Source: a virus. From it: DNA of 62,541 nt. Position 1 is the stretch's first letter; the number at the start of each line of letters is the position of its first letter. A program made the translations under genes and the position numbers. Location: the UHGV virus genome UHGV-0208829; one strand, 5' to 3'. Positions 653 to 57,780 of the stretch are shown here, piece after piece. Under the pieces are notes generated by a model. That model saw only the letters and a list, made by a program, of their open reading frames with translations. It did not search any database and was not told the origin of the DNA.

Positions 653-1777
653 TTACAGAGTCGTCAGTTCTTTTGACGGATAGTACAGTTTCACATCGAC
701 CAAACTGTAACCGGTGGCGTAGAACACCTGATTTCCGACCGAAGCAATAAACCCTTCAGGGTCGATAACGTCAACCGAGAAATCGGAATCGAATAGCCAG
801 GTTTCTTGTTCCCCTTCCCGTTCGAAAACGGCAGCGTAACGCCCGTATTCTGGGCCTCGGCGGAAACGAAACAGCGTTAATCCTGTCTCACGTTCTAAGC
901 CATAAATCACCCCATTTTCCTCGTAGATTTCAGCACGATTGCAGCGTGTAACCGTCAGCAACGCAGGCCGTTGTGTCGGGATTGTTTTAAACGGTGAAGG
1001 CCCATCGTATGTCGTTGAAACCCAATCACCGAGACTGTCTAACGCCAGTGCTCGATACGCAATAGGTGACTTGTAGTTACACAGCCTGTTGCCCTCGGTG
1101 TACATCGTGTATTCGATGCGTAACGTCGTACCGATGATGTCGTTCAAACTCAGTTTGTAGTGCGCTAACTGGGCTTGTATACGACGGGACAAAATTGTAC
1201 ACAGGAAAGTGTGACCTTCTGTAGAACGACACACCACACCGTAGTCGGTGACTGCCAGTAACGTGGCATCCGTTTTACGGACGGGTTCCAGGCGAAACAC
1301 CTCATTTTCAGTTTCTACGAGGAACTGTGAAACCGCTTGGTTTCTGGATTTAGCTTTAATCGTGTCGAAGACGTCTCCTGCTTTTACGATTAACGGCTCT
1401 ACTACGTTTACCTGAAATGGTAGCGGTTTCGTTGGGTATTGTCCCAACGTTGTAATTGTTACTGAGTTGAGTTCTGGGTCCGATGCGTCAGGATCACCAG
1501 ACAACCAGTACGTTAACCATTTCGACAGGGTTTGTGGAATAACGCGTGTGGTGTAAAACAGAATTTCGCCATGTAAACCTGCCTCTGCCAGTTCGCGTGC
1601 AAGAAACGAGTTGACCGCATCGTAGGTACCGTTGCGCAAAATGTCCATACCGCCGACACGAACCAAATCACAAATTACGCCGTGTGGAAGAACCCACATT
1701 TTGACGTTTTGATTTCGGTCGATGGTACCTTCGCGCAGCATTCTGTGCCAAACGGGTTTACGTAAGTAATTTCTCAT
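653..1777 (-). CDS. hypothetical protein (374 aa)
   Basis: ATG start with AGGAG 8 nt upstream; terminator downstream. Confidence 0.6.
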   Translation of the reverse strand: MRNYLRKPVWHRMLREGTIDRNQNVKMWVLPHGVICDLVRVGGMDILRNGTYDAVNSFLARELAEAGLHGEILFYTTRVIPQTLSKWLTYWLSGDPDASDPELNSVTITTLGQYPTKPLPFQVNVVEPLIVKAGDVFDTIKAKSRNQAVSQFLVETENEVFRLEPVRKTDATLLAVTDYGVVCRSTEGHTFLCTILSRRIQAQLAHYKLSLNDIIGTTLRIEYTMYTEGNRLCNYKSPIAYRALALDSLGDWVSTTYDGPSPFKTIPTQRPALLTVTRCNRAEIYEENGVIYGLERETGLTLFRFRRGPEYGRYAAVFEREGEQETWLFDSDFSVDVIDPEGFIASVGNQVFYATGYSLVDVKLYYPSKELTTL

Positions 1778-1805
1778 TTTAAAACTCCTTTAGGTAGAAT
1801 AAGAC

Positions 1806-1827
1806 TCTCACTAGGATAATATCTATC
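1806..1827 (-). promoter_or_regulatory. conserved promoter-like motif, site 1 (plus-strand reading tctcactaGGATAATATCTATC)
   Basis: Near-identical motif recurs at 47972-47993 and 57096-57117, each 14-50 nt upstream of a minus-strand start codon. Confidence 0.4.
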
Positions 1828-1850
1828 CGTAATTATTTCGAGGTTCACTA

Positions 1851-3227
1851 ATGGCTGAACTGGTTTATGATTTTACATCCGGCTGCTACCAGAAAGTCGG
1901 AACTCGCGTCGCTCAGGAATCGTTCGGCCGTGATCCGTTCTTCGATGACGCGGAAACCTCATCGGGTTTGTACTACGACTACGGTTTTGGTGGCTACGTC
2001 CCGATGGGATTCTCTGTCGCACACGAAGCCCGTCGTGACGACCGTTTACGTAAAGCGTTTGACGGCGTGTTTAATAAACTCGTGATTGACCGTAAATTGG
2101 CGTCTAAGTTGCGCCACTACGTAAGCGGGATACTCTCTCGTGAAGGTAACGTGGAGTGGTTAGGGTCGAACCTCCTCGGTGTCCACAGCATCCGTTTTTT
2201 TGATTCAGACCGTAATCGTCTGTTCGATGAAGTTATTAACGTCGACGAAGATTATCTGTCAGAACTGATTAAAGAGTCCCAATCGATTAATACCGATTGG
2301 CAGGTCGCGGGTGATACGTATAACCTGACCATCGTGTATTTGTTGCACCTGATGATTCCAAAGTTTGGCGACAAAGAAATCCTCGCTGCAGCCATCGACC
2401 TGGTGACGATACTCCAGTTTAAATTCTACTCGAGTATTTACTATCACTTCTTTCCGAAACCGGTTGATCTTCCCGCAGCAGAAGCGGCGTATTCGATGCT
2501 CTCAATGAAATTCGATATTCGTCGTTTGGGTAACTGGGGGCTGCATATGGCAGAACGTGCAACGTATTTCTGCTCGCCCGAATACCCGAACTACGACGCC
2601 GTAAAACGTTTCGATACCCCCGACTTGGTACTGCGTTATATCACCGATTTAAATACACGTACGAAACAAACCGTGAAAGACTATTACGCGGTGCTCGATC
2701 GTGTACGTCGTGAGAATACTCGCGTGGTTAGTCAGTCTGCACGCATCGAGTTAGATGGGCAGTCTGTGATTCGTGATAAAGTCGGTGCACTAGAGATTGC
2801 AAAACAGAATCTGTTTGATGCGTCTTACGACATTAACAATCTGTACAAGGAAGAGTTGGCTCGTGTGGTGCTAGAAATGGTGCCCAAAGCATCTCCTGCT
2901 GCGCTGAAAACGTTACTGACCTATATCGCCAGTTTACCGATCGGTAAGAAGCGTGATGAAATCAATAGCATTATGGAGGATACGCTCTCACATGCTTTTG
3001 ATGAGATTGTTACCAACCGTATCAACTTCAACGATGCGGTGACGGTGTTGCAGCGTATGCGTGCGTTGTATCAGGCGTCGAAATCACCGAACCCGTACGT
3101 GTTATCCCTACGGTCGAGAATTGAGAAACTGGCGGCGAAGGAAACACATATCCGTCACGAATCCGCGTTAGCAGCTTTGCGTAATGCGTTGCTGTTATAT
3201 TTCTTAATCCGGTCGTTACAGAAATAA
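1851..3227 (+). CDS. hypothetical protein (458 aa)
   Basis: ATG start, GAGG 9 nt upstream; terminator hairpin after stop. Confidence 0.6.
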   Translation: MAELVYDFTSGCYQKVGTRVAQESFGRDPFFDDAETSSGLYYDYGFGGYVPMGFSVAHEARRDDRLRKAFDGVFNKLVIDRKLASKLRHYVSGILSREGNVEWLGSNLLGVHSIRFFDSDRNRLFDEVINVDEDYLSELIKESQSINTDWQVAGDTYNLTIVYLLHLMIPKFGDKEILAAAIDLVTILQFKFYSSIYYHFFPKPVDLPAAEAAYSMLSMKFDIRRLGNWGLHMAERATYFCSPEYPNYDAVKRFDTPDLVLRYITDLNTRTKQTVKDYYAVLDRVRRENTRVVSQSARIELDGQSVIRDKVGALEIAKQNLFDASYDINNLYKEELARVVLEMVPKASPAALKTLLTYIASLPIGKKRDEINSIMEDTLSHAFDEIVTNRINFNDAVTVLQRMRALYQASKSPNPYVLSLRSRIEKLAAKETHIRHESALAALRNALLLYFLIRSLQK

Positions 3228-15068: not shown

Positions 15069-15740
15069 TTACTGTTGTTGAAGACGGCTTTCTAAGCCAG
15101 TGATGATTTCGTCGGTGAAATACGCTAAGTCGAGCATTCCAACGTACTCTTGGCGTTCCAAGATTTCTTTCGCAAACAATGCGTTATACCAATCAGGAAC
15201 ACGAGATTTACCATTACGACCGAACTTATTTTGCACGTGACCGATTGCATGGAATTTTGAATCGGTAACGGATTTTCCATGGTCACGTGCGTATAAGTAA
15301 GAGCGGTGCATGTAATTTTTAACTTCTTCGACGGTAGGGATACCGCGATCGGCGGCAGCGACAATTTCAGAAACAATGGAATTATAACCGCCTTTGTGGG
15401 AACTCCGATGTTCTAATACTGCATACGCTACCTCGGTTACATCGTCGGAGGTAAGTTTAAAGCGACGTCTGAGAATAGGTGCAGAATCAAGCACGTAATT
15501 GAATGCTTTGATGTGGTGGGAGGCACGGTCAGCAGGTGTGGAGAAAATATCGTGCGCTGCCACAGCAACCAGAACATTCTTTAAGTGTTGAGTTTCGTTC
15601 AACAGGTAAGCGATACGAACAGCGTTCGACTTCACAGAAAGAATGTGGTCTAGTCGATGTGCGCTATCGGTATAGCGATAGAAATCGCGGAAGTGGCTAA
15701 GTACACGTTCCCAGAATTTATTAATTTCAGTAGCTTCCAT
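15069..15740 (-). CDS. possible HD-domain phosphohydrolase
   Basis: 223 aa; spaced H ... HD ... H ... D pattern (LDHILSV, AVAAHDIFS, SHHIK). Confidence 0.3.
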   Translation of the reverse strand: MEATEINKFWERVLSHFRDFYRYTDSAHRLDHILSVKSNAVRIAYLLNETQHLKNVLVAVAAHDIFSTPADRASHHIKAFNYVLDSAPILRRRFKLTSDDVTEVAYAVLEHRSSHKGGYNSIVSEIVAAADRGIPTVEEVKNYMHRSYLYARDHGKSVTDSKFHAIGHVQNKFGRNGKSRVPDWYNALFAKEILERQEYVGMLDLAYFTDEIITGLESRLQQQ

Positions 15741-15761
15741 TGATAATACCTTACAAGTCGA

Positions 15762-16152: not shown

Positions 16153-16542
16153 TTAGCTACCTACGCTAGAGAGCATCCAATTGTTTTTGATAGCGTTAAT
16201 TTGTTTAACTGATTCCCGAATACCTTCAAACATTTTAATGCGCTCTGGCGTAGTAAGACATTGTTTAAGGTCTTTATCGAGAGAGAACAACATTGCCAGT
16301 TTTGCAAGCGAAACACTCAAGATATCAGACAATTCGTTGTTTCTACGCCACTCTGGGTTACGGACGATAGTCACTAGAGGACCGATATCTTCACAAGAAC
16401 ATTCTTTGTTCAGTAGTTTGTCACGTTGCTCGCACAGATAAGTTTCATCTGTAATTAATCGTTCCAGGTCATCTGGACGCATGATAGCACGAGTAGAAAT
16501 CATTAATACAACAAACGGGTCTTTAAATAATTCGTTTTTCAT
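16153..16542 (-). CDS. hypothetical protein (129 aa)
   Basis: ATG start with AAAGGAG upstream. Confidence 0.5.
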   Translation of the reverse strand: MKNELFKDPFVVLMISTRAIMRPDDLERLITDETYLCEQRDKLLNKECSCEDIGPLVTIVRNPEWRRNNELSDILSVSLAKLAMLFSLDKDLKQCLTTPERIKMFEGIRESVKQINAIKNNWMLSSVGS

Positions 16543-16592
16543 TCTTAATACTCCTTTAGGTTAAACAGTCGAATAGCGTGTAATTCTACAAC

Positions 16593-16623
16593 GCTCACCT
16601 AAGTAAAATATATCTAAGATAAT
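16593..16623 (-). promoter_or_regulatory. weak variant of conserved promoter-like motif
   Basis: gctcacctaagtaaaatatatctaagataat shares CTCAC and ATATCT blocks with sites 1-3 but different spacing. Confidence 0.2.
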
Positions 16624-16639
16624 TTTCAATAGGGTTAAA

Positions 16640-16678
16640 ATAAAGGTGGGCTAGTCTATTCGATGAATAGACTAGCCG
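16640..16678 (-). terminator. intrinsic terminator for gene 16686..17237
   Basis: Perfect 12-bp stem ggctagtctatt/aatagactagcc, 6-nt loop, minus-strand U-tract. Confidence 0.65.
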
Positions 16679-19127: not shown

Positions 19128-19856
19128 TTACCTCATAAACAAATCTTCGAGCGGTTCGGCACGCACCGGGTCAACCTGTAGCGCAGAACGAATACCACGT
19201 TTAAGTTCTACGTCTGCAAGTTTCGCCAGTCTCGACGTTTTGTTAAGTGAACCACTGCGCAATGGAATAAACTGCACAGGGTTGTTAAGATCGCTATCTT
19301 TCTTCAGCGTGTAACGGAAGAACGTTCTCGGATCACCTACTTTACGCTGCGTGTGCGCTGCGTAAACGTCAGCGGTAATCTGATCGGCAAATACAGTAAA
19401 ACCGTTCCATTTCTTGACTTTATCAGGTGCCAAGAGTTCAGCATCATCCGCTGCAGTAAACCAGAAAGGACGATTACCAAAGTCGTAAATATACGACGCA
19501 ATGTTGTAAATAGGGTGAGACAACACCTGTAAATTGCGGTTGGGGAAAACCACTGTACCGGGATCAAAACGAAATTCGTAATAAGGAACACCAAAGACGT
19601 CGATCTCTTCAAACGCCGTTGGGGTAATCTCCATAAGCGTTGTAACGCTGGACACCCCATATGTTTTACGGTCGGTAGAAATCGCAAAGATCCCTACAAT
19701 TGTTACCGTAGAAGAAATAACCGCCAACTCTTTCGCCACAAACCCAACGGGGATGTAAATGTAACACCCCCCTTTGGTAGTGGTGACCGTGCCGTTATTT
19801 ACCAAGTCCGCATGAACCTTAGTAGGGTCACGACGGGCTGTTTCAATCGCACTCAC
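19128..19856 (-). CDS. hypothetical protein (about 242 aa)
   Basis: Track start 19862 is GTG abutting the SD; GTG at 19856 has AGGAGG about 5 nt upstream; no in-frame ATG nearby. Confidence 0.45.
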   Translation of the reverse strand: MSAIETARRDPTKVHADLVNNGTVTTTKGGCYIYIPVGFVAKELAVISSTVTIVGIFAISTDRKTYGVSSVTTLMEITPTAFEEIDVFGVPYYEFRFDPGTVVFPNRNLQVLSHPIYNIASYIYDFGNRPFWFTAADDAELLAPDKVKKWNGFTVFADQITADVYAAHTQRKVGDPRTFFRYTLKKDSDLNNPVQFIPLRSGSLNKTSRLAKLADVELKRGIRSALQVDPVRAEPLEDLFMR

Positions 19857-19874
19857 GATCACCTCCTAAGCGCG

Positions 19875-21672: not shown

Positions 21673-24600
21673 TTATTTAAGTGTCGCGGGTAAATCAGGC
21701 ACAGCCTCCCCATCGAGTATACGCCCGATGAGAATCCCGGCTTGTTCACCTACAGCATTCGCGGTACCGATACGTTGGATTGAACCTACGATACGCGCAT
21801 CGACGGAATCACGACCGAACAACACGTCCAGGTCATCGCCATCCTCTGTTTTGTTGTCGCCGTACATGACTTCTTGTACGGTGGTTTTTAGCTGGTTAGC
21901 AATAACCATCTTATCCGCAGCGGCCATCTCAACGTCGTGTGTAATAAAGAATCGAACACAAAGTGAGTTAAAGGCCAAGGGTACACCTTCAACACGGTAG
22001 TCGCCGTTTACACTGCCTGAAACCGGATCACCGCGTCCGACTGCCAGTGCGGCTTTACGACGAATTCTGTCGTATTTACGCACCAGTTCAGCAAGACTTG
22101 GCGTCATGTCTTCGGTTTCACCGTGATACACCACTTCGATTTTATCCACGATACCACGTACCCCTGCACGAGGTGCGTACGAACTTAAACTTTGCAACGT
22201 TGCGGCTGCTTCCTGACTAAAGGCACTCATATCTCCCGTCAAGTCGTCAGTAAACGTGCATAGGATTGTATCGACGTCTACGTGGTCGCCTTCATTCACG
22301 ATTTCCAAAAGCATCTGGTTGCTGTTAATCGTCACTTCTTTCAGCTTTGTTACCTGCCCCACCATTTTCTTCGCGAACCGTTCAGAAATTGCGTTGGAGT
22401 CTTCGATAACTTCTTCAGCTTCTAATAAAGCAACGGTGGCCAGCACCCCGTTTTTCCAGGAAACCTGAGTAGGATCGTAAATATCAGGTTCAAAGTGTTG
22501 CTCGTTGTACGTAATCACTGCCCCGGCCGGGAGCTTGTCACCGGCTTTCCAGCGTGTTACCAAGGTGTGCGGATAGAAGGTACCTTCGTGGGGGCCGAAC
22601 CAGCGCCCTAGAGGAAAGGCTTCTTTACTTCCATCTTCGTACGTAATTTCAATGTGGTCTTTCGACAGACCAGTAATCTTACCTGCTTTATCAATAACGC
22701 GTGCATGTTTCACCGAAGTACGGTGAGCGACGAATTTCTCCTGTTCAGTACGATACGGGGTTGTGGTTGCCCCATTACAACTGGTGGCAGAACCTAACTG
22801 AATCCCAACGAAGTTTTGACGTTTTGCATCGTCCATTAAGGTATCGGGTACTAACCCGTCAATAAACGAAAGGGTATCGCTTGGTTTCGGGGTTTTCTCT
22901 TCACGCTTAAACGTGGTACCGTCAACGGTGTCAAAACGTGGGTTATTGGTGACGAAAGCAGTAATCCCTACGTCGCCGTTATCTACGGTGTTACCCGAGA
23001 CTATCCCGATATCACTGGGTTGGAACTCACGCGTGTGGTAGACCATCGTTTTACGATTACGACCACCTGTACCCCCCATCGTAATAACGTCTTTTTCTTT
23101 AATTGACTGGATAGGGTTAGCGCCTGGTGCCAAAAGTACCGACGGGTCGGAGTTAATTGCACCCCAAACCATGTCTTGCGTCAGTTCGAACTTACGGTTA
23201 CTACCCGGTGCGTTATTGTAGTTACGCATCGCTCTGACCATCGCAGTATAGATGTGGTAGGCAATCCTCTGATTTCCTAAGAACATCATTTCGTCGCCGT
23301 TAATCTCTGGTAAAGAGTGGTCAGTTTGTAACAGTTCGTTAGAACGTTCCAGCAAGCCAATAAAGGTTTCCGGCTCACCCATTTTCCTGAGGATACGTGC
23401 GTGCATGTCGTCAACAAACGCGGACCGCATCTGTTTCAGCTCGTTGATGTACCGTGGTGTTAGGCCATCTGCTTCACGTAATAAGTTCAGGTAAATGTCT
23501 TCGCGGTCTGCTTCTGATTCGGTATAAGCAACCAGGTGTTTGAGATAGCGATCCAAACCATGCAGAATCATCCTCTGCTGATCGTTATCGCAAGTAACTA
23601 AAAGTTTACAGTCTTGTAGTCGAATAATACTGTCGTAGGCATTCTTATCAACACGCTGACCTGTAGGAACCAACTCGTACTGGATACCGAAATGTTTCAA
23701 CATTCCCTGGAGTCCAAGATAGAACGAGAAGATAAAACCAAGCGACAAAGATTTACCCATCAAAGACAGCTCGGTCATTTCGCGAGGCACTTTCTGGTTA
23801 TTAAAGCCCAGTACCTCTGCGATAGTTCCCACCGGTTCAACTTTGTTTCCGTTCACACCGTAAAGCATGGATTTGTCATCCATTGCCAGGATTGTTTCAC
23901 TACGCGGACGTTTCGCCACTGGTAAAAGTTTGGCAGCATCGGCGTCTCTGAGTTGCTCGTCGTTAAAGAAGTTAACGGCTTCTTTGTAGTCGAAGTTCCA
24001 CATATAGCCATTCGCATTAAAGCTGGCAATACGACGTGCAATCTCCGTATACTGACGAGGCAGATGTTGCGTAGGATCGAACACATTTGCTAAACGTGCA
24101 TCGGTGACTTCGGTGTTTGTCGGGTCAACAGCGCGTGTGATGATCGCGTTGGTTAACCAACGACCGTAATCGTTCGCGACCTTATCACTACGACGGACAA
24201 AGTTTTTACCGTAAGCGGTAGTCAGTGCGACAGTATCCGGTGCAACTTTACGAATCGGTAAGTCCACACGTTGCCGACGCATGGTGTATTCGACACCATT
24301 AGCGACCCAAGTACCGTCCTCGGTCAAGCCTGGGATAGAGAAGCGAACGGTTGTTGGCTCACCACCGACTGGCTGAACACGTAAAGTGTGGTGCTCGATA
24401 GTTCCTGTAACAGAAACTTCTTTTTCCACCGTGTGGTTGTGAACCGCCAGACCCAAACGTTGTGAACTGGCGACCGCCGCCAGTACGTCTTTGGTCATCA
24501 TGGTCTGGTTGTATTGTTTCACCATCTGGTCGGTGACGTTCTCTGCCCACCCTTCATCGGTAACAAGCCGCTGAACTTTTTTCGGTTCGGCTTTAACGAC

Positions 24601-25839
24601 AATATCTTTCTCGTGAACAGTCAGTGCTTCCCCGTAGGTTTCTTTCGGGTTATACGGGTTAGGTAGCTGAACGAAACGTTTAGACGATTCTGACAGGAAC
24701 TGATACGCTTTAGAACTTAAGCGGCCCGCTTCAGCTAAGCGTTGTGCTTCCTGTTTAATAATCTCGTCATGCGGAATGACTTTCTCGACGACGATAGTCG
24801 TCGGTTTGACGTCTTCCTTCGGTTCTTCAATAACGACGTCTTCTTTTTCATCGAAGGTGTTATCGGATTCCACCACAGCGTCATTAACAACGTCGTCATC
24901 GTCGACAACATCAACGGTTTCTTCTTCGACGTCTTTAAGGAAAACACGCTCGTCGCCTTCAGGCGTTAGGAATTCCGCTTCGTACGCGTTAGACGGTGCT
25001 TGTGTCATTACACGCACCAGCGTACGGTAGAACATCCTGGCCATTTGGTCGTCACTTAAACGACCGCCGGACGACTTACGCATTTTCTCTACAACACCCA
25101 TGTTCATGGACGTGAAGCCCGTGTTGTGGGTGAAGATAAAGTTCATTCGTGACAGCTGAGTTAAATCCATTCCCGAGAATAAGGAATCGGATTGTTTTCC
25201 ATAAGCCCAAGCAAACAACTCCAATAGCCACAGCAAGTTGAAGTCCTGGAACTTCTCAATCTTGCTCTTAACGCGGTCGTTATAGGTTGTTTGAAACTTC
25301 TGGAACGAAGGTAGAGTCGAACCCAGTTCAATAACGAAATAGTTCTGACGCATGTATTCTTGCGTGTCGTATTTGAACTGGTTAATCATCAACAGTTGGA
25401 TGTTACGCAGTCTATCGTACCAGGCTAACTGGGTGTCAGGATAGTAATAGTGCGATAGCATCGGTGTGTAGTTCTCGACCAGGAGAACTTTTAAGTCTTT
25501 GCGAACCAGATCGTCTGAGGTAAGACGACGCATCGGGCGGTTTGCACGGTGGTAGGCAAAGATAGCACGTTCTTGCCCCTGAACAGGTTTGTTGCGAGGA
25601 TGGCCGCTAATACCGTCTTCCGGTAATTTAAAGTGGTGACGAACCTGTGCAGGTTTTTCTAACGGTTGAATAATCTCGAGTGTTGCAGGTGGCGCTAATA
25701 CCACCTGGTCGAGATCAATGACATGGAGTACAGAACCACGTGGTATCTGTAGCTTCTCGAGCGGGATAATCCTCGGATTACCAAACTCGTCAGTTTTACG
25801 CACCGAGAAGCGTTGGTTAAACTGTTTAATGAGCAGCAT
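21673..25839 (-). CDS. very large protein (1388 aa) immediately downstream of RNAP beta-prime-like gene; possible RNAP partner subunit
   Basis: ATG start 9 nt after upstream stop; acidic low-complexity linker; only weak RNAP-like matches, so function unassigned. Confidence 0.55.
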   Translation of the reverse strand: MLLIKQFNQRFSVRKTDEFGNPRIIPLEKLQIPRGSVLHVIDLDQVVLAPPATLEIIQPLEKPAQVRHHFKLPEDGISGHPRNKPVQGQERAIFAYHRANRPMRRLTSDDLVRKDLKVLLVENYTPMLSHYYYPDTQLAWYDRLRNIQLLMINQFKYDTQEYMRQNYFVIELGSTLPSFQKFQTTYNDRVKSKIEKFQDFNLLWLLELFAWAYGKQSDSLFSGMDLTQLSRMNFIFTHNTGFTSMNMGVVEKMRKSSGGRLSDDQMARMFYRTLVRVMTQAPSNAYEAEFLTPEGDERVFLKDVEEETVDVVDDDDVVNDAVVESDNTFDEKEDVVIEEPKEDVKPTTIVVEKVIPHDEIIKQEAQRLAEAGRLSSKAYQFLSESSKRFVQLPNPYNPKETYGEALTVHEKDIVVKAEPKKVQRLVTDEGWAENVTDQMVKQYNQTMMTKDVLAAVASSQRLGLAVHNHTVEKEVSVTGTIEHHTLRVQPVGGEPTTVRFSIPGLTEDGTWVANGVEYTMRRQRVDLPIRKVAPDTVALTTAYGKNFVRRSDKVANDYGRWLTNAIITRAVDPTNTEVTDARLANVFDPTQHLPRQYTEIARRIASFNANGYMWNFDYKEAVNFFNDEQLRDADAAKLLPVAKRPRSETILAMDDKSMLYGVNGNKVEPVGTIAEVLGFNNQKVPREMTELSLMGKSLSLGFIFSFYLGLQGMLKHFGIQYELVPTGQRVDKNAYDSIIRLQDCKLLVTCDNDQQRMILHGLDRYLKHLVAYTESEADREDIYLNLLREADGLTPRYINELKQMRSAFVDDMHARILRKMGEPETFIGLLERSNELLQTDHSLPEINGDEMMFLGNQRIAYHIYTAMVRAMRNYNNAPGSNRKFELTQDMVWGAINSDPSVLLAPGANPIQSIKEKDVITMGGTGGRNRKTMVYHTREFQPSDIGIVSGNTVDNGDVGITAFVTNNPRFDTVDGTTFKREEKTPKPSDTLSFIDGLVPDTLMDDAKRQNFVGIQLGSATSCNGATTTPYRTEQEKFVAHRTSVKHARVIDKAGKITGLSKDHIEITYEDGSKEAFPLGRWFGPHEGTFYPHTLVTRWKAGDKLPAGAVITYNEQHFEPDIYDPTQVSWKNGVLATVALLEAEEVIEDSNAISERFAKKMVGQVTKLKEVTINSNQMLLEIVNEGDHVDVDTILCTFTDDLTGDMSAFSQEAAATLQSLSSYAPRAGVRGIVDKIEVVYHGETEDMTPSLAELVRKYDRIRRKAALAVGRGDPVSGSVNGDYRVEGVPLAFNSLCVRFFITHDVEMAAADKMVIANQLKTTVQEVMYGDNKTEDGDDLDVLFGRDSVDARIVGSIQRIGTANAVGEQAGILIGRILDGEAVPDLPATLK

Positions 25840-25848
25840 TGCTTAGCC

Positions 25849-27468
25849 TTATGGGTTCTTTAATAACGCTTGCGTTGCACGTTTAATCACGTTGTTGATA
25901 GGATTGATTTTAAAGTTCCCATCAGAATCGAACCAGTAGTTTTTCGAGTGTATCCAATTCCGGTTTTCCTCGAGTGCTTCCTGGGACATAGGCGCGTTAA
26001 ACGACCCGGTATCGCCGTCGTAGTCACCCCCTAAGCCACCTAAGCGTGAAGGGTGTGGTGCCATCGACTCAACGAAGGTAGGAACCGACCGGTCAGGGTA
26101 GCTGATAGCCCCTCGGGGTTTTTCAGTTTCCCAGTCATCTTCCAGTTCTTTTAAGTATAAAGATGACGTGGTGGTCTCCAATCTTATGGTCGATGAATAC
26201 GTCGAGCCTCGGCCTGTAACGGGATAACGTGTAACGAAACCGAAATAATCGTTCCAAAGTTCGTAGCCCGACAAATAAAGCAATTCGACGAGTGTCATAC
26301 CGTGGACGAATTTTCGGTCAAACGTTTTAGGAAGTTCTTCAATATCGTAGAACACCTTAAAATGTTTGGTGTCTTGGTAAACCAACGCAACGTAGTGGGT
26401 GTCGTCCAACATAATCGGCTGATGGCGAAGCTCGCGAGCTTCCATTCGGTTGATTAAGGATTCAATCCCATCGTCGGTGGTGAATGTGTCGTATACACGA
26501 CCACCTACTTCCAAGAATTCACGTTTAAGGGTTTTGGTGTTTACGCCGTAAAGGTTGCCGTCACCAGCACGGATGTTACCGAGGTAACGTTCACGTATCT
26601 GGTATTGCGCAACGGGGAGTAATGCTTTTAAACCCTGGTATAAACCAATTTTGGTGTCGGTGGGACGAATAGCGTCTTCACGACCCATGCACTTAGACCC
26701 CGTCGAGAACGAGGACAGTACGTTACGTGTCCCGTTCATTAATTTACGAGACGTCACTTTACGACGTTGGAAACCCCCTTTACCGTCTTGGATGTTAAAG
26801 AAATACATCCAGATATCGTTGAAGGTTTGTTGCAGCTTCCAGCGTACGGGGTTAGTTAATTCAACACGGGTTGCTCGGTCAGGGATCGCCCTGGCGAGTG
26901 ATACCAACCGACGATACATCCCGCCGATTTCTTCTTCCTGTTCTCTACCATCTTGTCGAATTACTAAATCGCGTAAACCCGCGGGTAACACGAGAACGTA
27001 TCGACTAAGACTAACGGGACGGAATTTCAAAAAGAAATCCACGGTTTCGTCACGTTGTAGAGACTCGTTACGCTTAGGTTTTAAATCGTTATAGTGACTG
27101 AGGAAGAAGTTAAAACCGGTATCTGCGCCTGGGTCTCCCGGCAAGGCCGGTTCGAAATCTTTTTCTTTTTCGCTCCACGTTGCGTAGCGTTTTCCAGAAC
27201 AAATTTCTTCGTAGAGTTGTTTGAGTTGGAATAACGCCAAACACACCGTCGGCGAAATGATATCGAGTTTAATATCGATATAAGAGAAAGTAGAGTCTCG
27301 CGCTTCACTCCCCGTGAGTCCAAATATCTCTGTAGAGTAAAGACCTTCGGGGTGAAAGTTTTTTGTTAACCCCTGGAAAGTATCCGTGGTCGTGACGGGT
27401 CGTAATCGCGACACAAGAGACTTGTTTACATTGAGCAGATAAAAGTCAACCCAATTAAGTTTATTCAC
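25849..27468 (-). CDS. multisubunit RNA polymerase beta-prime-like subunit, N-terminal split fragment
   Basis: 539 aa; YVLVLPAGLRDLV...IGGMYRRL (region B-like), GKGGFQRRKV (region C-like), catalytic GDYDGD at 26011-26025 near C-terminus; GTG start with AGGAG 8 nt upstream. Confidence 0.65.
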   Translation of the reverse strand: MNKLNWVDFYLLNVNKSLVSRLRPVTTTDTFQGLTKNFHPEGLYSTEIFGLTGSEARDSTFSYIDIKLDIISPTVCLALFQLKQLYEEICSGKRYATWSEKEKDFEPALPGDPGADTGFNFFLSHYNDLKPKRNESLQRDETVDFFLKFRPVSLSRYVLVLPAGLRDLVIRQDGREQEEEIGGMYRRLVSLARAIPDRATRVELTNPVRWKLQQTFNDIWMYFFNIQDGKGGFQRRKVTSRKLMNGTRNVLSSFSTGSKCMGREDAIRPTDTKIGLYQGLKALLPVAQYQIRERYLGNIRAGDGNLYGVNTKTLKREFLEVGGRVYDTFTTDDGIESLINRMEARELRHQPIMLDDTHYVALVYQDTKHFKVFYDIEELPKTFDRKFVHGMTLVELLYLSGYELWNDYFGFVTRYPVTGRGSTYSSTIRLETTTSSLYLKELEDDWETEKPRGAISYPDRSVPTFVESMAPHPSRLGGLGGDYDGDTGSFNAPMSQEALEENRNWIHSKNYWFDSDGNFKINPINNVIKRATQALLKNP

Positions 27469-47403: not shown

Positions 47404-47952
47404 TTAAATAGGACGTTCTAAAAGGTAGTGTTCAATCAATGTTTCCAACTCCCGGAATAAATGCGCAGTTTGATTTACCAGCGCTTTGTCTTCGTCGGAC
47501 TCCGGTTTAAGGAACGCCGATTCATAGGGTTGAATTAGCGCGAGTAATTTACCCAGCTTATAAGCGGCAACCTCAGGACTGGACGTCCCAAAATAAGTGT
47601 CTAGCCATCGGTATTCCGCCAAGTCGTTTCGTTTATTTAAAGCGTCAGGTAATGGTAGCCATTCGATTGAACTCCTGTTAATTGCTCGTTGGTATTCATT
47701 AATGAGAAATGCTAAACGTTGATAAACAAGATCAATGTTATTAACACGCAATTCGAGGAAACCGCGAAGGCTGGGACGAAAAGGTTCTTCATTTATGTTT
47801 AAAGGCAACGTAAGCAATTGTAAGCCGGTAAAGACTCTGACATAGGGGTTGTGGGTGTTCTTATGGAACTCCTGCTTCAGAGACTCTTTGAGGGCTTTTA
47901 AACGATTATTCTCTAACCGTTGTTTAAAACGAGTTATTATTCCTGTTAACAT
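47404..47952 (-). CDS. hypothetical protein (182 aa)
   Basis: ATG start; promoter-like motif 20-40 nt upstream. Confidence 0.5.
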   Translation of the reverse strand: MLTGIITRFKQRLENNRLKALKESLKQEFHKNTHNPYVRVFTGLQLLTLPLNINEEPFRPSLRGFLELRVNNIDLVYQRLAFLINEYQRAINRSSIEWLPLPDALNKRNDLAEYRWLDTYFGTSSPEVAAYKLGKLLALIQPYESAFLKPESDEDKALVNQTAHLFRELETLIEHYLLERPI

Positions 47953-47971
47953 AATTCACTCCTAAAGAATG

Positions 47972-47993
47972 TCTCACGTAGATAATATCTGTC
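47972..47993 (-). promoter_or_regulatory. conserved promoter-like motif, site 2 (plus reading tctcacgtaGATAATATCTGTC)
   Basis: Same motif as sites 1 and 3; in divergent gap between 47404..47952 and 48024..48488. Confidence 0.4.
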
Positions 47994-48023
47994 TGACTTC
48001 TTTTTGAAATTGAGGTAGTAAGA

Positions 48024-48488
48024 ATGGCTGACGAAGAAGTGAAATATCAGGCGTTTGATGGAGATGTGGACGACGAAGAATCGCTTCTCCGCCAAACGCA
48101 ACAAGCCCGTGTACGGATTGTGAATCTCATCTTAGACGATCCACAAGCACACAAAGACTTGAAAACGGTAGACCGGTTAGGGTCTTTGCTTAACGACGTT
48201 GACAAACAAATCATTTCCAAACGTCGCGTCGCCGCTGCACAGAAAAACAGCGAAGCTAACCAAGATTTGGCGAATGCACTTAATAGCATCCTCATGCAAC
48301 GTGGCAATATCAAAATACGTCGTCACGATGAGGAAATCGAAGAAAGCCAGGGCTACCAGCCCCCCGTTCCTGTTATTCCGGATGTTGAAGTAACAGAAGG
48401 GGAGCTGGCACCAGTAGGCGAACAAATCGATGTTAGGTCCATTATGACGGCGGCGTTTGCACGTCCTGAGCAGGGCGAGCAAGACTAA
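48024..48488 (+). CDS. hypothetical acidic protein (154 aa)
   Basis: ATG with GAGGT 7 nt upstream; 3' end overlaps convergent minus gene by 47 nt. Confidence 0.45.
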   Translation: MADEEVKYQAFDGDVDDEESLLRQTQQARVRIVNLILDDPQAHKDLKTVDRLGSLLNDVDKQIISKRRVAAAQKNSEANQDLANALNSILMQRGNIKIRRHDEEIEESQGYQPPVPVIPDVEVTEGELAPVGEQIDVRSIMTAAFARPEQGEQD

Positions 48489-49164
48489 ATAAAGCGGCAT
48501 CTCGTGGGTCGACACCGACCCACTCTGCCATAAACCGGATATGTTCCTTAAACGGGTTAACCCCGTCTTGTTTGATTTGTTCGACCAATTCCCCGGTCAG
48601 TTCTGGTGTGAGCATGGCAGGGTGTGTGATGGTAAAGCTTGGAATCGGTTTTTTCAAGTGTGTAGCGTTAAGCTTAATCCACTCGAACCAATCGTACATT
48701 ATCCAGCAATCCCACGCCAATGACAATCTCCCCGGTGTGAGATCTTCTAACGACCAAGACACTAATTCAACTTGTACGTTATTGTAGTACATCCGAAACA
48801 GATTCAAAAAGGCTTGAAGTTCTTCGCCCGTTAAATCCGTATAAGGCCACGTATTGATGGTCAGAGTGGGCTTTTCAATTGGCGAATGCATTTCGATTTC
48901 AAGCAACATACACTCGAATTCGTTTTTCATTGTTGCCAATAATTCAGTAGGCTGCGCATTAATCAACGCGCGCTTATCCCGCTTCCGCCACTCTTCATCC
49001 CATTTTTCAAATCCAAGTACGCCAGCCCAAGCTTCTGTATAGCGACGACGATAAACATCGTAGTCTAGCAATGCTAAGCTTTCAGGCTTAACGGCTTTTA
49101 CCCAACCTAAACGCGTATCAAATAACGTATCAATATCGATTAAGAAACGCCGAGATAATCTCAT
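48442..49164 (-). CDS. hypothetical protein (240 aa)
   Basis: ATG start, ATGA overlap with upstream gene. Confidence 0.5.
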   Translation of the reverse strand: MRLSRRFLIDIDTLFDTRLGWVKAVKPESLALLDYDVYRRRYTEAWAGVLGFEKWDEEWRKRDKRALINAQPTELLATMKNEFECMLLEIEMHSPIEKPTLTINTWPYTDLTGEELQAFLNLFRMYYNNVQVELVSWSLEDLTPGRLSLAWDCWIMYDWFEWIKLNATHLKKPIPSFTITHPAMLTPELTGELVEQIKQDGVNPFKEHIRFMAEWVGVDPRDAALFSLARPAQDVQTPPS

Positions 49165-49829
49165 GACGGATGGCCTATGTTGTTACCGATATGCATCGCT
49201 TTTAGGTACGCCGACCACGTACGCGTTGCTTTAGAACTCGTTCGCTCCGCTCCAGGCAAGTCAATACGCCCTTTACCGGTTTGGCGCAGCGATTGATAGA
49301 AAGCACGTTGTAGTGCGTCGTTACCACCACGCGCCCACAAGAACTCTTTCAGTGTCCAGTCGTGACCATCGGAGTACATGATGTATGCCTCTGGGAAGGA
49401 CACCCCGGATGCTTTGGAAGGTCCGACGACTTGACCGGAGAGTTTATCGCGAACTTTGTCGTTTTTCGCAACCGCCATTTTCTTTTCTTGCATCTGTGTC
49501 TGACGACGGACAGGCAAGCGTAAGACTAAGTGAGGGTAACGAGTACGGTGATAGACACCCGTTTTTGGTTCTGTTAACCAGAGTCGTTGCTCCAGGTTTA
49601 CCCCGAGAATTTTGCACACCTCGATATTGCGCAGGTGATCAATTTCGACTTTACTTCCCACCGGGTTGTAAATAGGCAAACCGTTACGAAGTCGGTTAAA
49701 CTGTTCGTCGGTCATTCGTGCGAAGGCTTTCTTCGCGGCTTCGGCATTAATGCCAGAAGGGTCTACCAACTTTAAGATTTGTAAGGCGTAGGCTTCCGCC
49801 TTTTTACGCCGCGCTGGTTCGAGTTTCAT
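49161..49829 (-). CDS. hypothetical protein (222 aa)
   Basis: ATG start. Confidence 0.5.
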   Translation of the reverse strand: MKLEPARRKKAEAYALQILKLVDPSGINAEAAKKAFARMTDEQFNRLRNGLPIYNPVGSKVEIDHLRNIEVCKILGVNLEQRLWLTEPKTGVYHRTRYPHLVLRLPVRRQTQMQEKKMAVAKNDKVRDKLSGQVVGPSKASGVSFPEAYIMYSDGHDWTLKEFLWARGGNDALQRAFYQSLRQTGKGRIDLPGAERTSSKATRTWSAYLKAMHIGNNIGHPS

Positions 49830-55789: not shown

Positions 55790-56332
55790 TTATACTCCTT
55801 TAAGTTGACCGTATTTTGATGACAGGTAGATGAGTTCAGCATGGCAGATTTTCTCAACTAACCCGAGTGTCTCAAGGAAAATATCCCGGATACGGGACAT
55901 TGTTTCATTGGTAAGAATATCGCTCCAACACGTTGTGTCTATTATATCCGTCGTTGAAGATTGTCGCTGCAATATGGCGACATACACTTCATCGAGGGTA
56001 TCTGGAGCATTATTCTGTAAGTAATGCGCGGCATGTAGAAAGGCTTTCTCAAGAATCAGGTGAATATCCGTATCGGGATCAGTTACCCGCACCAAATGTG
56101 GGTATGTCATGGCCGAATGGATTTTTCGCTCTAACTGTTCAATGAGATTATTCACCATCGCTTCTGAATCCAGGATAGTAATTTCGACCCCACTGTGTTC
56201 TTCAGAAATCTTGTTCTCATGTACTGCTATCGCGTCGTGCAGTTCAAACGCAACGCGGCTACGCATCCCACTTAACAGTTTGTTTAATTTACCCCGTGAC
56301 TCGCTGAGTGAGAAATCGATAAGTATTTTCAT
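55790..56332 (-). CDS. hypothetical protein (180 aa)
   Basis: ATG start. Confidence 0.5.
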   Translation of the reverse strand: MKILIDFSLSESRGKLNKLLSGMRSRVAFELHDAIAVHENKISEEHSGVEITILDSEAMVNNLIEQLERKIHSAMTYPHLVRVTDPDTDIHLILEKAFLHAAHYLQNNAPDTLDEVYVAILQRQSSTTDIIDTTCWSDILTNETMSRIRDIFLETLGLVEKICHAELIYLSSKYGQLKGV

Positions 56333-57075
56333 TATGCATATTCCTGATAAATTGCCCGACCCCGATCTTCTCGAATCTGGCAGTAAGTTACAACAGCACC
56401 ATTAGGGATTTGTGCTCCGCTGTCTTCAAGGTAAATAACGCCCGTAGCTTCACAGAGGTAAAACGACCACAATCGTGAGATACCAAGCCGTGCGTTCTCG
56501 TAGTCACTGAATGGCCAGAAACCACAGTGAAGCTCAACATAGTCTCCACGTTCTATCCCGTAAGCAATCAATTCTTTTTCCCACAACGTACATTCGGCGT
56601 CGTAAATCGAAAACCAGAAACCAACGAGGTTCTTTGTTTGTTTAACGTTGAGTAAGTCGTTATAAATGGGGAAGAGTGCTTTATTGAAACTTTCTAACAT
56701 CTCTGGAGAGAATAGAAAATTCATGTAGTATTCTAGCCATTGATAAACGGCTTCCCAGACATCTTCAGAAGAGAAATGTTCGAATACAGCGTCATCGCAA
56801 TCGTAGTTATCGAAGATCCCTGAGAGATCTATTTCGACTACGCCGCGAAGGTCAAAGTTTCGGTTGGTATTGACAGCCTCGATAACTTCGGAGATGAGAC
56901 GAGTAAAGACGATTGTGCAAGCCGTCTGTGCGGTATAAAAGAATTCTCCTTGTACGGTTGACCACTTTGGGTCCTTCAAATGTTCATTGAAGTATTGTGG
57001 CCAAATTTTATAAAAGATTCCCTCGAACAACGAGGGATTGATACGTTGTAATTGAGGGACATAAACTTTTAGCAT
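56332..57075 (-). CDS. hypothetical protein (247 aa)
   Basis: ATG start; promoter-like motif 20-40 nt upstream. Confidence 0.5.
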   Translation of the reverse strand: MLKVYVPQLQRINPSLFEGIFYKIWPQYFNEHLKDPKWSTVQGEFFYTAQTACTIVFTRLISEVIEAVNTNRNFDLRGVVEIDLSGIFDNYDCDDAVFEHFSSEDVWEAVYQWLEYYMNFLFSPEMLESFNKALFPIYNDLLNVKQTKNLVGFWFSIYDAECTLWEKELIAYGIERGDYVELHCGFWPFSDYENARLGISRLWSFYLCEATGVIYLEDSGAQIPNGAVVTYCQIREDRGRAIYQEYA

Positions 57076-57095
57076 TTTAATAACTCCAATGGTGT

Positions 57096-57117
57096 TACAC
57101 CTGGATAATATCTATCT
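57096..57117 (-). promoter_or_regulatory. conserved promoter-like motif, site 3 (plus reading ttacacctGGATAATATCTATC)
   Basis: Same motif as sites 1 and 2; overlaps 3' end of gene 57112..57780. Confidence 0.4.
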
Positions 57118-57780
57118 AAGAATATTTTTAGCGAAAAAAGGATCGACTGTAAACTCCTTCACCTGTGAGTCATAACCCGAATGTATTTGATCGCTACTGA
57201 GCAAATACCCGTCTAAATCGTGTGGAAGAATCCAAGAATCGCCTTGTTTAAAAATACCATAATCTGTTGTTCCAGAGGAAAAAACGATTTCCTCTGGAGA
57301 CGAATAGATGTGGCGTAAGGCAAGATCTGACGGCTTTAACACGATTAATCGAACGGGATGTTGACTGACTGCCTCTTTAATAAACTGTTCACGATTAAAC
57401 CAAATTATTTTTTCGGGGTAAGTTTCGAATTCAGCCCATGTCCGCGTGATAACTAATTTGGAAATCTTTCTCAATTCTTCAGAATGCTCTGCGTAGCCGA
57501 TACACTCCTTGCGCACTTCATGATTTTCTACCGATGCTGCGAATTTTTGGAATAGGTGTTGTTGGAAAAAGCCGTTCTCCGGGATATCACAACCTGCGTT
57601 GTATAGTGCAATGATCTCCCACAACAACGAAAGAGAAAACACAAATGCTAACTTTTCCACCACTTCCCAATCTTCGGAGTAAGGGGCTTTAAAGCCCCAA
57701 TACTGCCGTGCGTTATACATAAAGTGAGTTTGTAAAAACCGGGGGGCTTTTGACAAGACCTCACTATAAACGATCAGCAT
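57112..57780 (-). CDS. hypothetical protein (222 aa)
   Basis: ATG start; 7-nt overlap with upstream gene. Confidence 0.5.
   Translation of the reverse strand: MLIVYSEVLSKAPRFLQTHFMYNARQYWGFKAPYSEDWEVVEKLAFVFSLSLLWEIIALYNAGCDIPENGFFQQHLFQKFAASVENHEVRKECIGYAEHSEELRKISKLVITRTWAEFETYPEKIIWFNREQFIKEAVSQHPVRLIVLKPSDLALRHIYSSPEEIVFSSGTTDYGIFKQGDSWILPHDLDGYLLSSDQIHSGYDSQVKEFTVDPFFAKNILR

Follow-up and report, generated by a model that had tools for sequence, protein, structure and literature searches.

Candidate early promoters of the virion RNA polymerase in a jumbo phage related to SPN3US and Asesino

For the jumbo phage phiKZ, Ceyssens 2014 (J Virol) is said to be the primary source for mapped early motifs. 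Wicke 2020 and Putzeys 2024 are reportedly further sources on phiKZ early promoters, which are attributed to the virion RNA polymerase (RNAP), and Lavysh 2016 (Virology) is said to predict early motifs across jumbo phages.

According to a review, bioinformatic searches find, in all jumbo phages that encode an RNAP, an AT-rich motif ahead of the early operons with its centre near −10, and where tested this motif proved to be the early promoter (PMC7598289). The consensus early promoter of phiKZ has been given as AGATgTATATTACaaatGTG / tatattaaaaaaaatttaAGATgTATATTACaaatGTG / tatattaaaaaaaatttaagatgtatattacaaatgtg (2025 preprint, PMC12676376 Table S1). An early promoter with a primary start site was reported for PHIKZ054, and phiKZ leaders are typically 31-40 nt long (PMC8244752). 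In the Bacillus jumbo phage AR9, dRNA-seq and primer extension yielded the early consensus ATATATTAT / AAATATATATTAT-(6N)-G(+1), and chloramphenicol did not block the two AR9 early promoters that were tested, P087 and P104 (Lavysh 2017, PMC5312081). Early transcription in AR9 does not require protein synthesis, an indication that the virion RNAP carries it out.

We analysed a stretch of 62,541 nucleotides from the virus genome UHGV-0208829 (hereafter the window, to which all coordinates refer unless another genome is named). In megablast searches with both of its ends, the window is about 75% identical at the DNA level to the Erwinia phages vB_EamM_Asesino and phiEaH2 and to Salmonella phage SPN3US. 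The matches to these phages form long syntenic stretches and extend to their relatives, and the phage collection holds no record closer to either end of the window than the relatives of SPN3US and Asesino. Judged by this similarity, the source of the window is an SPN3US/Asesino-like jumbo phage of the phiKZ type, predicted to have two multisubunit RNAPs. The window runs in the opposite direction to the Asesino and SPN3US genomes, whose main coding strand is therefore equivalent to its minus strand.

Four minus-strand ORFs of the window are 76-90% identical to SPN3US gp240, gp241, gp218 and gp244, which are virion-packaged RNAP subunits (Thomas et al. 2016, PMC5105663). Two of them are genes for beta-like subunits (25849..27468 and 21673..25839, 76-86% identical to gp240 and gp241). 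The third is the orthologue of gp218 (49161..49829, 83-86% identity), and the fourth, orthologous to gp244, corresponds to the C-terminal subunit of beta′ (19128..19862, 86-90% identity). PHROGs labels the first three 'RNA polymerase beta subunit' and the fourth 'virion structural protein', and the virion RNAP beta subunit had no match in the PDB.

An earlier note on this DNA had described a promoter-like motif at three minus-strand sites, all of which are present exactly as it said: GATAGATATTATCCTAGTGAGA at 1827-1806 (site 1), GACAGATATTATCTACGTGAGA at 47993-47972 (site 2) and (A)GATAGATATTATCCAGGTGTAA at 57117-57096 (site 3). The pattern GAYAGATATTATCYNNGTG matches the window three times, always on the minus strand, and has no match in 100 dinucleotide-preserving shuffles. 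Taken alone and searched with up to one mismatch, the 10-mer is not significantly enriched (7 matches observed versus 3.4 expected).

We then used a 40-column weight matrix, trained on sites from Asesino and SPN3US only, with the window left out. Seeds for the matrix were picked by sequence score, and neither strand nor location played a part in their selection. In the window the matrix has exactly four matches, at 1824 (43.3 bits), 16611 (43.0 bits), 47990 (37.2 bits) and 57113 (35.0 bits); in 20 shuffles of the three sequences (window, Asesino, SPN3US) no score exceeded 16 bits. The match at 16611 belongs to a stretch, 16593-16623, that the earlier note had taken for a weaker variant. With 43.0 bits it is not weaker than sites 1-3. 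Rather, this fourth site represents a second subtype of the motif, with the core ATATTTTACT at 16611-16602.

Three one-mismatch copies of the 10-mer, at 15742, 24598 and 35722, are excluded from the motif family because each scores below 8 bits with the full matrix. The first of these, AGGTATTATC at 15742-15751 on the minus strand, lies within a 21-nt gap right before the ATG of gene 15069..15740, an HD-domain gene according to the Asesino and SPN3US annotations. With such a low score and in this position, it looks like a ribosome binding site (RBS) with its spacer, not a promoter.

Aligned sites define an element of about 35 nt. It consists of an A-tract, about 6 nt, a (C/G)(A/G)GAT box, the core A(G/T)ATATTA(T/C)C, 3-4 nt and GTG(A), and the last TG is nearly invariant. 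All four candidate promoters in the window lie on the minus strand. Candidate promoter 1 (subtype A, 1805..1844) has the A-tract and the GTG, its box reads CGGAT, and its core is AGATATTATC at 1824-1815. The same core occurs at 47990-47981 in candidate promoter 2 (subtype A, 47971..48010) and at 57113-57104 in candidate promoter 3 (subtype A, 57094..57133). Promoter 3 overlaps the end of the gene upstream of it, 57112..57780, at the TAG stop codon. Candidate promoter 4 (16592..16631) belongs to subtype B.

If the mapped promoters of AR9 and phiKZ are taken as a guide, the AT-rich core would be a −10-like element. The predicted transcription start is the final, invariant G in GTG, six bases after TATTAT/C, which lies at 1809, 47975, 57098 and 16596 on the minus strand for promoters 1 to 4. 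The corresponding leaders would be 32, 23, 23 and 54 nt long, the last of them spanning 16543..16596. The distance of 32-41 nt between motif and ATG given in the earlier note is wrong: from the end of the 22-nt motif it is 28, 19 and 20 nt to the ATGs at 1777, 47952 and 57075, and the range also fails for the 10-nt core, whose end lies 37, 28 and 28 nt before these start codons.

A −10-like element raises the question of whether the host sigma-70 RNAP reads the sites as weak '-10 only' promoters, with TATTAT as the −10 hexamer and early transcription dependent on the host. TATTAT agrees with TATAAT at five of six positions, including the key A at −11 and the T at −7, and the G 7 nt downstream is at the normal distance for a sigma-70 start; moreover, independence from host RNAP is established in phiKZ and AR9 and not in SPN3US-like phages. 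However, the four sites lack both the −35 hexamer and the TG extension, the bases before TATTAT being AGA instead of TGN. The earlier note had already remarked on the missing −35 element, and this holds true: a consensus scan of the four sites found no sigma-70 −35/−10 pair at any of them. What they do have upstream is the conserved A-tract and the (C/G)(A/G)GAT box. In subtype B, the sequence TATTAC loses the essential T at −7, yet all other boxes are shared with subtype A, and neither the conserved AGAT box nor the A-tract nor the invariant GTG is a sigma-70 element. We therefore consider it quite improbable that the host enzyme reads these sites. The distribution of the motif in related genomes bears on the other reading, promoters of the injected virion RNAP.

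The complete genomes of Asesino and SPN3US were scanned with the matrix alongside the window. Asesino has 23 matches on the plus strand and none on the minus strand, and SPN3US has 24 on the plus strand and 3 on the minus strand, counts that partly reflect the seeding of the matrix from high-scoring matches; all three minus-strand matches in SPN3US are palindrome echoes at plus-strand sites. Exact copies of the core AGATATTATC number 11 in Asesino and 9 in SPN3US, all of them on the plus strand. The genome-wide search called for in the earlier note, run in these two phages, gave about 23 sites per genome on the main coding strand. In SPN3US, where intergenic DNA makes up 6.4% of the genome, 21 of 23 cores are intergenic (binomial P = 1.6e-23), and 20 of the 23 lie 35-110 nt upstream of a plus-strand start codon (P = 3e-20), most sites being at distances of 41-110 nt. 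The possibility that the motif is equally common inside coding regions, which the earlier note had named as evidence against a promoter, clearly does not hold, given the 21 intergenic cores among 23. All four sites in the window are intergenic as well.

Two broader searches contributed little. A scan of IMG/VR for the 14-mer AGATAGATATTATC gave at least 120 loci, almost all of them single chance matches in unrelated contigs, and was uninformative. A full-text literature search for the string ATATTATC returned only primers and unrelated sequences.

The positions of the sites are conserved. Site 1 has counterparts in the orthologous gaps of Asesino (242446) and SPN3US (238185), as do site 2 (Asesino 195738, SPN3US 191606) and site 3 (Asesino 186032, SPN3US 184048). 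The counterparts of site 4 are at 227943 in Asesino and 223281 in SPN3US, and their core, TATATTAC, is identical to the phiKZ core. Positional conservation of the window sites is thus complete across three genera, and between the two complete genomes each Asesino site has a positional counterpart in SPN3US and vice versa. In three-way alignments of the window, Asesino and SPN3US, the element is a block of identity and the surrounding non-coding DNA has diverged; site 3, for example, is an island of identity within an otherwise diverged gap. The proteins encoded downstream of the four conserved sites are only 27-63% identical to their orthologues in Asesino and SPN3US.

The first genes after the motif, all on the minus strand, are as follows. 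Promoter 1 precedes 653..1777, which encodes a protein of 374 aa (phrog_8136) orthologous to SPN3US gp263 and Asesino gp284 (56-63% identity). The gene after promoter 2, 47404..47952, encodes 182 aa and is the orthologue of SPN3US gp221 and Asesino gp243 (48-51% identity). After promoter 3 comes 56332..57075 (247 aa), orthologous to SPN3US gp209 and Asesino gp228 (34-38% identity), and after promoter 4 comes 16153..16542 (129 aa), orthologous to SPN3US gp249 and Asesino gp271 (27-33% identity). PHROGs describes all four only as 'unknown function'. Pfam searches with these four genes, with their divergent neighbours and with the subunits of the virion RNAP gave nothing meaningful, the sole match being DUF1904, below threshold.

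The region around the four sites is otherwise full of late structural genes and virion-RNAP genes. In the matrix scan, no early motif lies upstream of the window's virion-RNAP genes, as expected of genes that are not early. The virion-RNAP polypeptides of phiKZ are described as middle-gene products by Yakunina et al. 2015.

In the related genomes, the motif is associated with genes that are more informative. When four Asesino homologues were tested against the chains of the phiKZ non-virion RNAP (nvRNAP) structure, 7OGP, gp40 was homologous to PHIKZ055, gp47 to PHIKZ068, gp51 to PHIKZ071 and gp94 to PHIKZ123. A motif site is located immediately 5′ of the operons of gp40 (16341/16433), gp47 (24560), gp51 (29799) and gp94 (74904). 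Directly after gp51 lies gp52, which is annotated as an RNAP subunit and is the orthologue of SPN3US gp35, a protein assigned to the nvRNAP beta′ subunit (Thomas 2016, PMC5105663). In SPN3US, two sites (15618 and 15711) are found upstream of gp22, the gene for the nuclear-shell protein ChmA (YP_009153316.1; accession from PMC10643120, checked against the record). Because the nvRNAP cannot make the first copies of its own subunits, whatever reads the motif must already be present at infection.

This placement also bears on the idea that the sites are middle or late promoters of the nvRNAP itself. The clade does encode this second polymerase, and its promoters are poorly defined outside phiKZ (PMC7598289). 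However, the motif precedes the enzyme's own subunit operons in the relatives, which the nvRNAP could not be the first to transcribe, and the motif is absent from the minus-strand blocks of structural genes. The known phiKZ non-virion promoters are also dissimilar, with a TATG start motif or, in the middle class, a weak AT-rich motif at −24 (PMC7598289). Promoters of the non-virion enzyme are thus a very improbable explanation of the sites.

By contrast, we consider it highly probable, by analogy with the mapped promoters of other phages, that the sites are early promoters read by the injected virion RNAP. The multisubunit enzyme would be packaged in the capsid, enter the cell with the DNA and read the motif, and within minutes of infection each of the four sites would activate one early transcription unit. 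What we infer here is the nucleotide at which transcription begins, when it does so and which polymerase reads the sites; our literature search found no transcript, start-site or timing data for SPN3US-like phages. The earlier note had proposed a phage-specific promoter class read by the phage RNAP. Strict orientation, intergenic placement, fixed distance to the start codon, conservation in three genera and placement before nvRNAP and ChmA genes strongly support such a class on comparative grounds, but it is not new to this phage, since the class has already been described. The motif also agrees, base for base, with early promoters that experiments have defined in phiKZ and AR9.

We noticed several further features of the motif in the relatives. 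Upstream of the ChmA gene, early-type sites occur in tandem about 92 nt apart in both relatives (Asesino 16341/16433, SPN3US 15618/15711). This arrangement recalls the pair of start sites of different temporal classes reported for phiKZ gp54. Asesino gp39 was not linked to chimallin in a phmmer search against the PDB. A conserved core AGATATTATC with partial flanks lies inside the PHIKZ068-like nvRNAP subunit gene (Asesino 25976, SPN3US 25230), about 275-300 nt before the next gene, and could be an internal promoter. Finally, a strong subtype A site at position 72490 of the SPN3US record follows the major capsid gene and is itself followed by an RBS and an ATG. The ATG opens a short unannotated ORF of fewer than 35 codons, and Asesino has a 269-aa gene, gp92, in the same place. 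It seems that the promoter was retained in SPN3US although the gene was lost or truncated.

As the earlier note had stated, sites 1 and 2 lie in divergent gaps. These are 71-73 nt long, with no co-directional gene upstream. In both gaps (1778-1850 and 47953-48023), a conserved block 5′ of the A-tract is the reverse complement of the RBS (GAGGT) of the divergent gene. Since this plus-strand RBS abuts the A-tract of the promoter, the gaps are fully occupied, which leaves three places for the transcripts of 1851..3227 and 48024..48488 to begin: in the early promoter itself, beyond it, or in the early gene. At both divergent gaps, transcription units would then overlap in antisense. We identified no promoter for the plus-strand genes 1851..3227 and 48024..48488.

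The divergent arrangement had led to the suggestion that sites 1 and 2 might work in both directions, which is unsupported. The family is strictly one-directional, the reverse strand of site 2 scores 13 bits versus 37 for the forward strand, and the weak reverse-strand scores seen at some sites (13-20 bits) only echo the half-palindrome GATA.TATC. The same half-palindrome, with inverted arms of 4 nt in the subtype A core (GATA-T-TATC), and these weak reverse scores might suggest that the sites are operators for a dimeric regulator of phage or host origin, and not promoters. We find this hardly credible. Subtype B (ATATATTACC) is not palindromic, yet it has all the flanking boxes of subtype A, and the conserved flanks are asymmetric. 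Furthermore, the sites are all co-directed with the downstream gene at a fixed distance from it, and in the two divergent gaps the motif is the only conserved element, other than the RBS, that is able to act as a promoter. Just as hard to credit is the idea that the motif works in RNA, within a longer transcript that it would mark for processing or for translation. Read-through RNA might include site 3, which comes after a co-directional gene with a gap of only 36 nt. Sites 1 and 2, however, are preceded by no gene in their own direction, and a terminator hairpin lies ahead of site 4. Moreover, the motif itself shows no conserved RNA structure, and in AR9 and phiKZ identical motifs are upstream of mapped primary 5′ ends.

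Among the candidate promoters of the virion RNAP, the two subtypes differ in more than the core. Subtype A (sites 1-3) ends in TATTATC, is followed by a short unstructured leader of 23-37 nt, and includes all sites upstream of nvRNAP and ChmA genes in the relatives. Subtype B ends in TATTAC(C/T), includes site 4 and precedes small accessory genes. Core position 9, which is T or C, is the same in 23 of 23 pairs of Asesino and SPN3US sites and in the four sites of the window, despite diverged flanks.

The leaders of subtype B contain a stable hairpin that starts at about +2, with energies mostly of about −6.5 to −10 kcal/mol (−3.9 at one Asesino site). The window, Asesino and SPN3US all retain the hairpin, though with stems of different sequence. 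After it come a box, (A)ATCGAC(T/C)(A/G)T, at 27-30 nt before the ATG, and then TAAGGAG. In the leader of promoter 4, AGCGT (16595-16591) pairs with ACGCT (16579-16575) on the minus strand, for −7.4 kcal/mol, and the box is TCGACTGT at 16572-16565, followed by AAGGAG. SPN3US also has intergenic copies of the box that are not preceded by a strong early motif, three or four in number (57148, 167594, 224199).

Immediately upstream of promoter 4 is a terminator-like hairpin of 13 bp with a T-rich tail (16649..16677, minus strand). It is kept as a structure in Asesino and SPN3US with different stem sequences, and it marks a boundary between transcription units. A terminator hairpin is often found upstream of subtype B sites. 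It is possible, though we think it unlikely, that the subtypes are functionally distinct, either as separate tiers of early expression or because subtype B is a promoter cassette similar to PeSL. If there are such tiers, what sets them apart may be the strength or timing of the promoters, the stability or translational control of the mRNA, or a specificity factor.

For a phage that had no annotation, these results provide four predicted early transcription units with predicted start sites. They also mark four genes of unknown function as probably early, and the early class usually holds functions in host takeover and anti-defence. As of the AR9 paper of 2017, the virion RNAP of nucleus-forming jumbo phages had not yet been purified, and we found no later account of promoter recognition by the virion RNAP in the literature. 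Some 50 natural promoters are now aligned; they come from three genera, include two conserved core variants and can serve as templates for in vitro work. The promoter set could also be used in early-expression cassettes for enterobacterial jumbo phages, as cassettes for phiKZ have already been built.

Of the systems described so far, phiKZ offers the closest comparison. Its consensus consists of an A-tract, AGAT, one base (g), TATATTAC, four bases (aaat) and GTG, and has the same boxes and spacing as the motif described here, A-tract ... (C/G)(A/G)GAT-A-(G/T)ATATTA(T/C)-C/N3-GTG. The 8-mer TATATTAC is identical in subtype B and phiKZ, whereas sites 1-3 carry GATATTAT, with two bases changed. 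With our enterobacterial matrix, the phiKZ consensus reaches 23.5 bits and the promoter of phiKZ gp54 30.9 bits, compared with at most 17.4 bits in 50 shuffles. In the first 50 kb of phiKZ, TATATTAC occurs seven times on the plus strand, always upstream of genes, and never on the minus strand; one copy is 80 nt before PHIKZ054 (chimallin). Copy numbers are about 23 per genome in Asesino and SPN3US and 28-32 in phiKZ, with the motif co-oriented with genes in both cases, and the motif precedes the chimallin and nvRNAP genes in phiKZ as well as in the SPN3US/Asesino clade. PhiKZ differs from the window phage in host and genus, and its start sites are experimental, whereas ours are predicted.

Four features of phiKZ-type early promoters recur here. 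The window has genes for a virion multisubunit RNAP, and its motif has a highly conserved AT-rich core, about 10 nt long and similar to the validated consensus. Tens of intergenic, co-oriented copies were counted in the relatives, where the motif also precedes the nvRNAP and nuclear-shell genes, which lie outside the window.

The resemblance to AR9 is more restricted. The AR9 consensus and subtype A share ATATTAT-(6N)-G exactly, at all three of the sites first reported. However, AR9 is a distant relative with uracil-containing DNA and no phage nucleus, and its stated consensus has neither the AGAT box nor the GTG context. Early transcription independent of host RNAP, shown for phiKZ and AR9, is predicted for the window phage by analogy with them.

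Two other systems share only part of this organization. The PeSL (promoter-early stem-loop) cassettes of T4-type phages have promoters that are read by host sigma-70 RNAP. The subtype B module resembles them in its succession of terminator hairpin, early promoter, 5′ stem-loop and conserved leader, and in recurring before small accessory genes; subtype B sites, however, keep their position between genera. In phage N4, as proposed here, an injected virion RNAP reads a small set of phage-specific early promoters. The N4 enzyme, however, is single-subunit and uses DNA hairpin promoters, whereas the one considered here is multisubunit. We rejected an N4-type hairpin promoter (5-7 bp stem, 3-nt loop) for the motif: the arms GATA/TATC have 4 nt and are separated by a single base, so no hairpin is possible at subtype A, and subtype B has no inverted repeat. 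The motif is closest to the promoters of phiKZ. It is a known promoter class, found here in another phage, and it confirms the existing model rather than changing it.
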